Part shown: positions 474 to 53,990 of the stretch, piece by piece
Layout: each line of letters opens with the position of its first letter
How positions within the stretch are numbered: the first letter of the stretch is position 1
Assembly: GCF_003790525.1 (NCBI RefSeq)
Contig: NZ_CP033635.1
Length of the DNA stretch: 64,000 nt
Reading direction: 5' to 3' (one strand)
Source: Escherichia coli
GTDB lineage: Bacteria > Pseudomonadota > Gammaproteobacteria > Enterobacterales > Enterobacteriaceae
The notes under the pieces: model-generated
Told to the model about the DNA's origin: nothing
Databases searched by the model: none
The model's input: only the letters and a program-made list of their open reading frames with translations
Position numbers and translations under genes: made by a program

Positions 474-1260
474 TAAACGTTGGCCAGTGCGGCTGTTGGT
501 GCCAGATAGCCAGGTTTACCAGCAGCCCTGCCGGAACGTGCATATTATTCATAATGCCCAGCGTTCCGGCGTCCACCTGCGTCGCGCCGTAGTTCCACAT
601 AAAGTAGCCAATCCCGGAAGCCACCACGCCAAGAAACACCAGAATGCCCCATTGCAACGTGGTTTGCGGCATTTTCTGCGCATTTCCTAGCAAGAACCAT
701 GCAATCACTGCCACCAGGAACGCGCCAAGATAGAACCACGCAAAGGCGTTATGCTGCGGCATCGGGCGAGTTTCCATCAGACGTTTGTAACCCACCATGC
801 CGATGGCAAAAGTGATATTGGAGAGTTGCACCAGCAATAAGCCAGTCCAGAAATGGTCGGTGACCTGATCATAGCGAATAATCCCGGCACCAATCACCGC
901 CAGCAAGGCGCTAAAAGCATAGCCCCAGCGCAGACGGCGCTTACTCATGATGTCATAAATCAGCGTGATGTAGAGCGGCGTCAGTACGGTGAACAGCAAC
1001 AGTTCGGAGACCGTCAGGTAGAGATAGGCGCGGAAACTCAGCATATACATCACACCGAGCTGCATCGCGCCCACCAGCATATACAGGCCGACCGTTTTCA
1101 GGCTATTGCCACGGGTACGCAGAAACGGCAGAAAAACGAGTGCCGCCAGGCCAACGCGCACCAGCACCGCAAAATAGCTATCGACGTGCCCCGCAAGGTA
1201 CTCGCCATAAAAGCTAAAGGAGAAGGCCCACAGAATCGTGGTGATGATAAGTAGCGCCAC
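361..1260 (-). CDS. yigM: EamA/DMT-family inner membrane transporter YigM (biotin transporter BioP)
   Basis: 299-aa ORF, multi-helix hydrophobic protein starting [15 protein letters not shown]; convergent 3' overlap with metR. Confidence 0.85.
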
Positions 1261-19475: not shown

Positions 19476-19944
19476 TATGGATTGCCTGTAAAGTTCATCG
19501 CTTTCTGCTTTCTATCATCGCAGGAGAAGACGTAAAAGCAAGCGTTTAGCGACTCTTTATGAAGTCTGAAAAGTGAGGAAATGCTGCGAGTATAACGCTT
19601 ACACGTGGCGATTTATGTTTTGCTGGCAGTTTCGTGATCGGCACCTCGCGCCAGGATGGCTTTATGCACTATCGCAACGTGGTTTGTTTGTTGTCTTGTT
19701 CGTTGTTCTTATCGTCGGCATGGGGATGTCGGCTTTCCGCGCCTGAACATAATATTTACCAGAAACAGGGAAAAGGCGTGGTGTACCTGCGTCCTTATGA
19801 AAAGACCAATCTTTCGCTATATAGAGATATTATTATTCCGTTGACGGATGAATCATGCCGTAACGCAGCCGCAGACGGGCAAACTTTGAAGCCCTGACCC
19901 CATACCGCTATACTGCCGCCATCACTTAAAAACAGGATACAACA

Positions 19945-20304: not shown

Positions 20305-22851
20305 TCACGAAAAATACTGCTGTAATAGCGGCGTGTCGTGATCCTGATTGGCAGGCGGCATGTTGCCAATCGATTTGGTGCGGAACGGAATCACCTGTTC
20401 ACGACCATCAACCTTCACAATCTGATAGAACTGCGGCAGGTTGAAGTTGATGAAGCTTGAGCCGTAGGTAAAACGGTCGTGCGATGACGAGTAGAAGCGA
20501 CTGACGTCACGCACCAGCTCCTCTTTGCTGCCTTCGCAGTGGTGATACACCTCAACCCGGTTGCTTTCGTCGAGAATGTAGATATTAAAGCCATTCTCGT
20601 CTTGCGTTTCTTCGAAGAAGAACTGGATGATCCCTTCGCTGGCAAAGCCGTCCACCACCGCCGGTAATTTGACGTGATTGGTTTCAACCTGCACTGACAG
20701 GCCGTGCAGTTTGTTATGCGAAATAGCGCCATAAAACTCGATGGCATTTTCTAGTTTCTGTACCGATACATTCAGGCGTTCGAAGAATAAGCCCCAGGTT
20801 TGACCAGAAACGCGCAGCGCCTTGAAACGTCCGGTTTCCTGGCGGGTGCTGGAAAGACGCAGTTCAATGCACTCAGAAACCAGTTGCTGCACGCGAGTAC
20901 GGATTAATCCGCGCAGATGCTGGCTATAACAGAAGACTTCCACGCTATCTGGCGGTGCGGCGTCCTGATGCATTTTACCGAGAATGGTTTTCAGGGCTTC
21001 GATCATCGACTGCTCGCCGTTGAAGTGCAACGTACGCACTTCGTTCCACGAGTTGCGGTACAGCAGGTCCACGCTACCTACCAGGCAATTTTGATTCTCG
21101 CCAAAGCTGAAGACGTCCAGCTTACGGAAATCAAAATGCACCACCTGATTGCGGAACGCAGCTGTCGGGTCATATTCCAGGTTAACGATAATCGCCAGAT
21201 GGCGAATCTCACATGGGCTGTAGAGCGCTTTTGGCGTCGGTGCAGGCAGGCGCAGCGGGAAATGGTGCGACACGTCGGCGACCATCTCCTGCAACTTAGG
21301 CAAATCGACAATGCCGTTGCCTTTAATATACAAGCGGGTGCGCGAGGTCAGCAGGCCGTTAAACCATGCCCACGCCACCAGTTTATTCAGGTAACGGTTA
21401 TATTCCAGCGGCTGATGGCTGATGATCGACTCAATATTTGGCGCGCGGTTATACAGATACCAACCTGAACGGTTAGCCCGGCCCGGCGGCACATAAATAA
21501 AGGTCAGATTCGGTTCCGAGAGATCGGGCGAAATCTGCGGGTTTACCAGCGTCACTTTACCTGGCAATGCTTCAAACGCGGCGTACAGCTTACGTGTCAG
21601 CACGCCGATATCCTGCGGGCTGGCGGAGACGCTAAGGTTATTGCGGCGCGCAAAGCGGATCAGATTACGGTAGCTCTGCATCATCGCGTCGAGCAGCTCG
21701 TTGTGCGCCTCACGCACCTGATCAATCTTCCAGTTGGCGCGGTTATCGAGCATTGCCAGACGCGCATCGTCCCATTCCCACTCTTTCACTAACTGGGTTA
21801 GCACTTCACGACGCCAGCCTACGCAAGCGCGTTCGCGGCTGAGTTTTTCGCACACTTTTAAATAGAAGCAGCGGCGTACTAAATCCAGACGGGTGAAATC
21901 TTCAATCGCCGTCAGGTATTCCGTAACACGCTCCAGCATCATGCAGTATGGATCGAGGCCAAACGACACAATCTCGCCGTCGTGCAAACGCTGTTTGATA
22001 TCTTTCGCCAGCAGGCGTGGGTTGGGATATTCCCAGGAATAGGCTTCCAATAGCAGTGTTTTCAGCACCGCTTTGTATGGGGAATCGATACTCTTGTAGA
22101 GCTGCCAAAGGCTGGCACCAAAGTACTCTTCAGCAGAAAGCGAGCTTAAGCCACCAAGATCCAGCCATTCATTAGGAGTAAGCACGCCCTGCGCGTAAAG
22201 CGTCATCACATAGTCGTCGTAATGCTCTTCTTCGTCGCACGGCACCATATTCCACAGAATACGCTTACCGGCGAGACGCACGGCGGTACGATAAAATTCG
22301 TCAAGCAGCAGTATATGCTGGGTGGAGCCACAATCTTCGCCCCCCAGGCTGCCGCTTTCATTATGACGGAAGCGATTTTCATCAATCAGGAAGAAGCTGA
22401 CTTCCACACCCAGCGAGGCGGCCCAGCTTTCCAGCAGACTACATTTACGTTGTAGTAACTGGCGCTCTTCGCTATCGAGCCAGGATTGATGACAGACCCA
22501 GATATCCAGGTCAGAGGAACAACTTTGCCCTACGGACGAGGTGCTGCCCATGGTGTATACACCAGTAATTGGAAGCTCACCTTTCGGCGGATCCTGTACT
22601 GACATTCCACGATACAGTTCAAGCTCGTTCAGGTAGTGGCGTTGAGTTTCATCAGGCGTGTAAAGGCAAATGCCTTTGGGAACGTTACCATCAAGGTAAC
22701 CCGGCATTAGCGGATGGTGATAGTGCAACAATGTCGGCAGTAGACTGTAGACCTGTTGGAATGCAGGCCCCATAGCAGCAAGCGCGCGATCCACACGCAA
22801 TTGATTTATGGCATCCAGTCTCTGTTTCAGAGTCTCAATATAGAGGTACAA
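20305..22851 (-). CDS. cyaA: Class I adenylate cyclase
   Basis: 848-aa ORF ([19 protein letters not shown]...); the first codon is TTG (reverse complement of caa at 22849..22851). Confidence 0.93.
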
Positions 22852-23237
22852 GACGTATCGCCTGATTTGCTACCCGTCATGACTGTGATTCCGCCAACAT
22901 CAACGGTAACACGCGGCATTCGGGATATTTCGTATGTCAAAGGTAACCGTTACCACTTTTCGCGCCTGGTTTTTTTAGTTTCACGACGAAAAAATGGTCT
23001 AAAACGTGATCAATTTAACACCTTGCTGATTGACCGTAAAGAAAGATGCGCTACATACAAGTGTAGCACCGTTTATTCTCTGTAAATTCCTTATTACGAC
23101 GGCGTGAAACGCCTGTCAGGATCCACTGCCAGACCTCATTTTACGGTTTGCGCAGGCGTCTACGTTTCACCACAACACTGACATCGCTCTGGCAAGGATG
23201 TTAGGATGGACCACGGATGATAATGACGGTAACAAGC

Positions 23238-24179
23238 ATGTTAGACAATGTTTTAAGAATTGCCACACGCCAAAGCCCACTTGCACTCTGGCAGGCACAC
23301 TATGTCAAAGACAAGTTGATGGCGAGCCATCCGGGCCTGGTCGTTGAACTGGTACCGATGGTGACGCGCGGCGATGTGATTCTTGATACGCCGCTGGCGA
23401 AAGTAGGCGGAAAAGGCTTATTTGTTAAAGAGCTGGAAGTCGCGCTCCTGGAGAATCGCGCCGATATCGCCGTACATTCAATGAAAGATGTGCCGGTTGA
23501 ATTCCCGCAAGGTCTGGGGCTGGTCACCATTTGCGAGCGTGAAGATCCTCGCGATGCCTTTGTGTCCAATAACTATGAAAGTCTGGATGCGTTACCGGCA
23601 GGCAGTATCGTCGGGACGTCCAGTTTACGTCGCCAGTGCCAACTGGCTGAACGCCGCCCGGATCTGATTATCCGCTCCCTGCGCGGCAACGTCGGCACTC
23701 GCCTGAGTAAACTGGATAACGGCGAATACGATGCCATCATTCTTGCCGTAGCCGGACTAAAACGTTTAGGTCTGGAGTCCCGCATTCGCGCCGCATTGCC
23801 ACCCGAGATTTCTCTTCCGGCGGTAGGACAAGGTGCGGTGGGTATTGAATGCCGCCTTGATGATTCTCGCACTCGCGAGCTGCTTGCCGCGCTGAATCAC
23901 CACGAAACTGCACTGCGCGTTACCGCAGAACGCGCCATGAATACCCGTCTCGAAGGCGGATGTCAGGTGCCAATTGGTAGCTACGCCGAGCTTATTGATG
24001 GCGAAATCTGGCTGCGTGCGCTGGTCGGCGCGCCGGACGGTTCGCAGATTATTCGCGGTGAACGCCGCGGTGCGCCGCAAGATGCCGAACAAATGGGGAT
24101 TTCGCTGGCAGAAGAGCTACTGAATAACGGCGCGCGCGAGATCCTCGCTGAAGTCTATAACGGAGACGCCCCGGCATGA
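23238..24179 (+). CDS. hemC: Porphobilinogen deaminase (hydroxymethylbilane synthase)
   Basis: ORF 23217..24179 trimmed to [20 protein letters not shown] (313 aa). Confidence 0.92.
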
Positions 24180-27377: not shown

Positions 27378-27584
27378 AAAAAAACGCCTGCTCTTATTAC
27401 GGAGCAGGCGTTAAAACAGGTCTGTATGACAACAAGTGGGTGCTTCACTCAACGTTGTGTCCATGGTGTCTGATGAGGCATAAGCGACATCTGTCAGTGG
27501 ACGATAAGCACCGTAAACGGCTCTGCGTCATTCCGGAGTTTATGAGGCACTAAGGCGAACATAAGAGATGGAATGAGCATCTAC
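27378..27584 (-). ncRNA. glmZ: Small RNA GlmZ (activator of glmS translation)
   Basis: Minus strand begins GTAGATGCTCATTCCATCTCTTATGTTCGCC and ends with the hairpin AACGCCTGCTCCGTAATAAGAGCAGGCGTTTTTTT, matching the GlmZ sequence as I recall it; located between hemY and aslA. Confidence 0.85.
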
Positions 27585-31188: not shown

Positions 31189-31265
31189 TGGTCGGCGAGA
31201 GAGGATTCGAACCTCCGACCCACTGGTCCCAAACCAGTTGCGCTACCAAGCTGCGCTACTCGCCG
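31189..31265 (-). tRNA. proM: tRNA-Pro (anticodon UGG)
   Basis: Minus strand CGGCGAGTAGCGCAGCTTGGTAGCGCAACTGGTTTGGGACCAGTGGGTCGGAGGTTCGAATCCTCTCTCGCCGACCA; cloverleaf with anticodon TGG and encoded CCA. Confidence 0.95.
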
Positions 31266-31307
31266 AAATACTGCTTTTTGAATTTTTAGTTCAATTCTTT
31301 AAAGTCG

Positions 31308-31394
31308 TGGTGCGAGGGGGGGGACTTGAACCCCCACGTCCGTAAGGACACTAACACCTGAAGCTAGCGCGTCTACCAATTCCGCCACCTTCGC
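31308..31394 (-). tRNA. leuT: tRNA-Leu (anticodon CAG)
   Basis: Minus strand GCGAAGGTGGCGGAATTGGTAGACGCGCTAGCTTCAGGTGTTAG...CTCGCACCA; long variable arm, anticodon CAG. Confidence 0.95.
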
Positions 31395-31414
31395 ATTGTC
31401 ACAACTTCTAATAA

Positions 31415-31491
31415 TGGGGTGGCTAATGGGATTCGAACCCACGACAACTGGAATCACAATCCAGGGCTCTACCAACTGAGCTATAGCCACC
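31415..31491 (-). tRNA. hisR: tRNA-His (anticodon GUG)
   Basis: Minus strand GGTGGCTATAGCTCAGTTGGTAGAGCCCTGGATTGTGATTCCAG...GCCACCCCA; includes the extra 5' G typical of tRNA-His. Confidence 0.95.
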
Positions 31492-31548
31492 ACTACAAAT
31501 CTTGTTACGCGGTATTACTACCACCGCAGCTCAAGCGCCGGGACTAAA

Positions 31549-31625
<77 letters not shown>

Positions 31626-47909: not shown

Positions 47910-48239
47910 TTACGCCAGGTTAGCGTCGAGGAACTCTTTCAACTGACCTTTAGACAGTGCGCCCACTTTGGTTGCCGCCACTTCACCGTTTTTGAACAGC
48001 AGCAGAGTCGGGATACCACGGATGCCATATTTCGGCGCAGTGCCAGGGTTTTGATCGATGTTCAGTTTTGCAACGGTCAGTTTGCCCTGATATTCGTCAG
48101 CGATTTCATCCAGAATCGGGGCGATCATTTTGCACGGACCGCACCACTCTGCCCAGAAATCAACGAGGATCGCCCCGTCCGCTTTGAGTACATCCGTGTC
48201 AAAACTGTCGTCAGTCAGGTGAATAATTTTATCGCTCAT
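47910..48239 (-). CDS. trxA: Thioredoxin 1
   Basis: ORF trimmed to [37 protein letters not shown] (109 aa, active site CGPC). Confidence 0.95.
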
Positions 48240-48369
48240 ATATAACTCCACAGGAATAAGCCTGGCGTGTTGGTTTCGTTGTTGGTGTAACATTAACCAA
48301 CTAAAGGTTGACTTTATTTCACCGGATACGCTTTCGTAAAGCAATAGTAAGCTGATATTCTACCACACT

Positions 48370-53540: not shown

Positions 53541-53990
53541 GTGGCGATTAATTTCAGCCCCAAGGTTGGTGAAATACTGGAATGCAACTTTGGTAACTAT
53601 CCTGTTAGCCAGAATGGACAGTTCAGCACGACGTATTACGATGGCCGCATTCCACCTGAGATGATAAAAAATAGGTTGGTTGTCGTGCTCAACGGAAAAA
53701 TTAATGGCAACGCATGTATCGTCGTTCCATTATCAACCACTCGCGACCATGACAAGTTAAATCGTGGAATGCATGTTGAAATAGCCAGTAATGTTATCAA
53801 TGACCTGCAATTCTTTGATCAGCAGATACGTTGGGCTAAAGCCGACCTGGTACAACAAGTCAGTCGAAATCGATTAAACAGAGCAAGGACTTATCGGGGG
53901 TATCTTAATCAATGTTTGCCACATGAGTTGGTTGCAGACATACAGAGGGCAGTCATCAAGTCAATCAATGCCATATCGCTCATAAATTGA
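53541..53990 (+). CDS. yifN: PemK/MazF-like toxin-family protein YifN (apparently intact)
   Basis: GTG at 53541 preceded by aaggagag (53525..53532); the translation has MazF/PemK-like motif spacing (VGEILECNF, RLVVVLNG, ACIVVPLSTT). The 163-aa track ORF from 53499 is an alternative start. Confidence 0.6.
   Translation: MAINFSPKVGEILECNFGNYPVSQNGQFSTTYYDGRIPPEMIKNRLVVVLNGKINGNACIVVPLSTTRDHDKLNRGMHVEIASNVINDLQFFDQQIRWAKADLVQQVSRNRLNRARTYRGYLNQCLPHELVADIQRAVIKSINAISLIN

Follow-up and report, generated by a model that had tools for sequence, protein, structure and literature searches.

Results

The cyaA Gene and Its Genomic Setting

The window, by which we mean the whole stretch of 64,000 nucleotides of Escherichia coli DNA that was analysed, carries on its minus strand a cyaA coding sequence of 848 codons plus a stop (20305..22851), which was assigned to class I adenylate cyclase from its open reading frame, NCBIfam, Pfam and the RefSeq annotation. 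The product scores 2049.3 bits against the NCBIfam equivalog NF006977 (cutoff 1761) in an alignment that covers residues 1-848 of 848, and its Pfam architecture consists of PF12633 (Adenyl_cycl_N) at residues 5-200 (E = 1e-82) and PF01295 (Adenylate_cycl) at residues 228-825 (E = 9e-259). In the RefSeq annotation of the genomes that match the window, cyaA is flanked by hemC in divergent and cyaY in convergent orientation, and cyaY or hemC also adjoins the gene in distant class I cyclase homologues. The equivalog match, the domain order and this chromosomal context are those of the enterobacterial type of class I adenylate cyclase. For the identical E. coli protein, the literature documents the conversion of ATP to cAMP. 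A PDB sequence search returned no solved structure for any CyaA relative.

The 801-nt region around the cyaA start matches many E. coli genomes, B and C strains among them, at 100% identity. A match was obtained in 5425 of the 5426 complete E. coli genomes, leaving one genome without a match. One copy is plasmid-borne and a few genomes have two copies. A 25-kb stretch of the window is identical to strain SMS-3-5 and its relatives, and the gene is the chromosomal cyaA of an SMS-3-5-like E. coli strain. Outside the window, some class I cyclase homologues reach 1,300-3,250 aa (P0019, P0024, P0042 and about 15 others). In the three named proteins, which were scanned, 1,100-2,100 residues that match no Pfam family lie between PF12633 (residues about 13-205) and PF01295; in P0019 this insert is rich in Ala, Ser and Gly and of low complexity.

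Several other features of the window were recorded. The hemC frame runs 7 codons upstream of its annotated start and holds two further in-frame ATGs (23217..23238, plus strand), and from its letters the true hemC start is ambiguous. Between ppiC and rep lies an intact gene for a PemK/MazF-family toxin with a GTG start (53541..53990, plus strand), next to which the annotation has no antitoxin gene, and a DKNYY-family pseudogene fragment (19634..19819, plus strand) is located between cyaY and lptM. Known RNA elements on the minus strand are the GlmZ sRNA (27378..27584), the trxA 5' UTR thermometer (48210..48309) and an Arg-His-Leu-Pro tRNA cluster (31189..31625); on the same strand the Rfam entry 'Rev39 5' UTR' matches over the ilvL/ilvX leader (63319..63608).

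The TTG Start Codon in the Sequence

The initiation codon assigned to cyaA, on the basis of sequence, RefSeq start, conservation and literature, is a TTG (22849..22851, minus strand). On that strand the start region reads TAG CAA ATC AGG CGA TAC GTC TTG TAC CTC TAT ATT GAG ACT CTG AAA CAG, so that an in-frame TAG (22870..22872) 7 codons 5' of the TTG closes the frame in this strain. None of the six codons between them is ATG, GTG or TTG, and a start of the cyaA frame further upstream is therefore impossible. On the 3' side, the in-frame codons of start type are a TTG at codon 18 (22800) and a GTG at codon 20 (22794), and the first in-frame ATG, seen in the sequence and in the open reading frame, is codon 27 (22771..22773, minus strand). 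The earlier note had claimed that cyaA opens with TTG in an 848-codon frame with no in-frame ATG near the N-terminus. Both statements hold: sequence, open reading frame and RefSeq start agree on 22851..22849, the first ATG comes only at codon 27 and the upstream frame is shut by the TAG. Comparison with the annotated start, which the note had put forward as a check, gives the same result, since the first base of cyaA in RefSeq (PGAP) falls on window position 22851 in two strains (protein WP_000281696.1, 848 aa).

Of the 59 annotated coding sequences in the window, ATG opens 50, GTG 6 and TTG 3 (cyaA, ilvY and ysgD), and a TTG start is thus uncommon here, though not unique. The other two TTG-start genes lie on different strands (ilvY, start 56095, plus strand; ysgD, start 11886, minus strand). 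cyaA shows the marks of a UUG-initiated gene in that no start-type codon separates the stop from the TTG, which is preceded by a Shine-Dalgarno-like element at a suitable distance, opens a coding signature and is conserved across relatives. In other species the distance between the TTG and the in-frame stop upstream varies between 7 and 98 codons, a spread that would be expected for non-coding DNA.

Conservation of the TTG

Of 5425 complete E. coli genomes, 5417 contain an exact copy of the 71-nt context of the TTG, and the same 71-mer queried with ATG or GTG in place of TTG had no exact match among complete E. coli genomes. The only non-exact genome inspected differs at -31, which leaves the start codon unaffected. 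Beyond E. coli, the homologous position is TTG in all 80 loci sampled from 79 Enterobacteriaceae species. In eight class I cyclases that have diverged further (40-63% identity) the called starts, which are gene-caller predictions, are TTG in three, GTG in three and ATG in two. Several of these eight have an in-frame stop a few codons upstream and no ATG nearby. In the two nearest outgroup representatives, L085 (63% identity, TTG) and L086 (54%, GTG), the starts align on residue 1 of the E. coli protein; some divergent homologues carry short N-terminal extensions.

UUG at cyaA has been described as phylogenetically conserved in many Enterobacterales and in other gammaproteobacteria (PMC5499595), a statement with which the non-ATG starts called in the distant cyclases agree. 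Conservation in every Enterobacteriaceae species sampled, together with the majority of non-ATG starts among the distant homologues, fits a picture in which selection favours low or tuned amounts of CyaA. We infer that the weak codon persists because selection acts to limit or tune the level of the enzyme.

The Shine-Dalgarno Sequence and the Initiation Block

The TTG is preceded by a Shine-Dalgarno-like AGGCGAT (22857..22863, minus strand), with 6 of 7 bases complementary to the 3' end of 16S rRNA and with its AGG core 9 nt before the start codon. The motif is invariant in an alignment of 76 sequences, and in distant homologues an AGG core likewise precedes the TTG. The energy of its duplex with the anti-Shine-Dalgarno sequence is -6.0 kcal/mol, which ranks 29 of 59 window genes. 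A weak Shine-Dalgarno sequence was considered as a cause of low CyaA expression and is unsupported by this mid-rank strength. Because the motif is average, low expression cannot be read from it and the case rests on the start codon and the literature.

Across the 79 species (76 distinct sequences), the conservation footprint reveals a near-invariant initiation block from -15 to +20 (22832..22866, minus strand) that takes in the synonymous sites of codons 2-7, in which 2/6 third positions are variable, compared with 269/293 in codons 8-300 (Fisher p = 8e-4). Such suppression of synonymous change points to a reading that we regard as possible though rather doubtful, namely that the TTG is indeed the start but is kept for a regulatory property of UUG, or as one element of a larger initiation module under constraint. 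The first form of this reading draws on the literature: mRNAs with UUG are reported to stay competitive under nutritional stress, which has been linked to cyaA and spoT, and UUG has been proposed to make translation respond comparatively little to ppGpp, cold and competition (PMC5499595). Post-transcriptional control of cyaA does exist elsewhere, as the Qrr sRNAs of Vibrio cholerae repress cyaA mRNA (PMC9732341). This reading meets several objections. Folding of the initiation region gave a minimum free energy of -24.1 kcal/mol, no better than that of shuffled sequences (z = 0.29), so that no stable or unusual RNA structure is indicated and structure was dropped as an explanation of the invariant block. 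A search of the cyaA 5' UTR, including the start, at Rfam gathering thresholds matched no family. Furthermore, fewer synonymous changes in the first codons are common in bacterial genes generally.

The sole frequently variable base of the block falls in the triplet at -5 to -3, which is ACG in E. coli (22854..22856, minus strand). Its counterpart in 47 of the 79 Enterobacteriaceae species (L014-L081, locus positions 796..798) reads ATG, out of frame and 5 nt before the TTG (gatATGtcTTG), as against ACG in 31. The frame opened by this ATG has 9 codons (MSCTSILR.) and overlaps the TTG in 38 of the 47 species, and it has at least 20 codons in the other 9. The toggling between the two states could be taken in favour of a constrained module, but the site flips repeatedly within genera, e.g. 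Kosakonia, Cedecea and Pluralibacter, which looks like near-neutral change. A strong out-of-frame AUG at -5 is carried by most genera, but we consider it unlikely that CyaA synthesis is set by competition of such a decoy with the UUG, or by a trans-acting factor that binds the -15 to +20 block.

The Coding Signature of Codons 2-26

In the 79 Enterobacteriaceae species, variable sites in codons 2-26 number 4, 0 and 17 of 25 at the first, second and third codon position, respectively, and residues 2-26 are invariant except for D21E in 2/79. The 75 nt upstream of the TTG have 23, 24 and 25 of 25 sites variable in the three phases, with no period of three. In the footprint drawn from 76 distinct sequences, the period of three begins after the TTG; the substitution pattern switches at the TTG. 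At almost every position codons 2-7 are invariant, and the Enterobacteriaceae therefore offer no evidence from synonymous change in that interval, a gap that the distant homologues alone fill. When nine divergent homologue N-termini (32-57% N-terminal identity) were aligned, R22 and A23 were invariant. CyaA residues 5-26 align to PF12633 from Pfam position 2 onward, and among the best 150 representatives of clusters at 50% identity most align from query residues 1-11.

These observations bear on the possibility that the real start is the first in-frame ATG, codon 27 (22773..22771), with the interval from the TTG to Met27 as an untranslated leader. ATG is the commonest start codon in the window (50/59 genes), and the ATG at codon 27 is kept in all 79 Enterobacteriaceae species sampled. 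Even so, we judge a start at Met27 to be highly improbable. An untranslated leader is at odds with an invariant peptide in which 17/25 third but 0/25 second positions vary. The NCBIfam equivalog aligns from residue 1 and PF12633 from residue 5, and with PF12633 extending over 5-26 and R22 and A23 unchanged among the homologues, translation from Met27 would cut into a conserved domain. Met27 itself is not conserved in the divergent homologues, several of which have A, L, T or S at that position, and some lack an ATG anywhere in the 45 codons around the called start (L090). Published mutagenesis of the UUG, as cited in PMC5499595, shifts expression 2- and 6-fold.

Starts at Met27, at TTG18, at GTG20 and at an upstream ATC were all rejected on conservation. 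The last three are in frame with cyaA, and AUC, which here lies five codons upstream of the TTG, is capable of very weak initiation, but any of them as the true start is scarcely credible, given that residues 2-17 are conserved as protein, that homologues begin at aligned position 1, that direct inspection found no Shine-Dalgarno-like element before codons 18 or 20, and that the frame around the ATC is not conserved, with its stop at 7-98 codons and no period of three. The 848-aa annotation is confirmed, and a gene caller should not trim CyaA to Met27.

The Upstream Region

About 150-205 nt upstream of the cyaA start, the conservation profile inspected by eye shows a conserved promoter-like block, TTTACG and TAAATT separated by 17 nt, which overlaps a CRP-like site (block, 23005..23040, minus strand). 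The CRP-like site itself, TGTTAAATTGATCACG (23005..23020, minus strand), has an 8/10 match. A second CRP-like site, TGTTGGCGGAATCACA (22884..22899, minus strand), identified by sequence match and the conservation profile, lies inside the 5' UTR and is moderately conserved. A generic promoter scan predicted no cyaA promoter near the conserved block, and it missed the CRP-like elements. The block is a putative main promoter of cyaA, of the kind repressed by cAMP-CRP, which would leave the mRNA with about 150 nt of 5' UTR. It probably corresponds to the cyaA promoter P2, reportedly described in Aiba 1985 and Roy 1983.

Discussion

It is almost certain that translation of CyaA starts at the UUG at 22851..22849, after a modest Shine-Dalgarno sequence, and that weak initiation at this codon caps its synthesis. 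The UUG stands behind the modest AGGCGAU, with the AGG core at 9 nt, and is read by the initiator fMet-tRNA, so that CyaA begins with Met. Imperfect pairing of UUG with the initiator anticodon holds initiation several-fold below that of AUG, and such inefficient initiation in turn keeps the maximum output of adenylate cyclase low. The Shine-Dalgarno sequence is ordinary, and the weak step is the start codon. cyaA is also under transcriptional repression by cAMP-CRP, and the phosphotransferase system controls the protein after translation; the cap imposed by UUG would add to both of these controls.

The UUG of cyaA is a textbook case that goes back to the 1980s and is among the earliest documented non-AUG starts that limit expression in E. 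coli. The TTG start and its expression-limiting reading are already known and already in the annotation. It matters little as a discovery, and what the comparisons show is the depth of its conservation. In the experiments of Reddy, Peterkofsky and McKenney (PNAS 1985), as cited in PMC5499595, cyaA starting with UUG, GUG or AUG yielded adenylate cyclase in the ratio 1:2:6, respectively, and with a lacZ fusion the same three start codons gave 1:2:3. The proposal made in the earlier note, that a rare TTG keeps adenylate cyclase translation low, is borne out by the 1:2:6 ratio, to the extent that PMC5499595 relays it, and by the conservation of UUG at cyaA.

Comparison With Known Systems

The cyaA gene of E. 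coli K-12 was reportedly described by Roy, Haziza and Danchin in 1983, by Aiba and co-workers in 1984 and by Reddy, Peterkofsky and McKenney in 1985. It is the same gene as the one in the window (UniProt P00936), with a TTG start, an 848-aa product and the hemC-cyaA-cyaY neighbourhood, and in the K-12 W3110 record the 71-nt context of the TTG is identical to that of the window. In comparison with K-12 cyaA nothing relevant differs; the whole window matches SMS-3-5, and the start region is found species-wide.

Weak start codons are likewise conserved at other low-abundance bacterial regulatory proteins, such as AUU in infC, GUG in hupB and UUG in spoT (PMC5499595), where they serve to limit or regulate expression, and in this respect cyaA resembles them. 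For infC, an autoregulatory loop has been demonstrated in which IF3 acts on the AUU. We know of no infC-like feedback that acts on the cyaA UUG. Other gammaproteobacterial class I cyclases have PF12633, PF01295 and the N-terminal helix in common with CyaA. The start codon varies among them (TTG, GTG, ATG) and several have short N-terminal extensions, while six of the eight divergent representatives share with the E. coli gene a called start that is not ATG.
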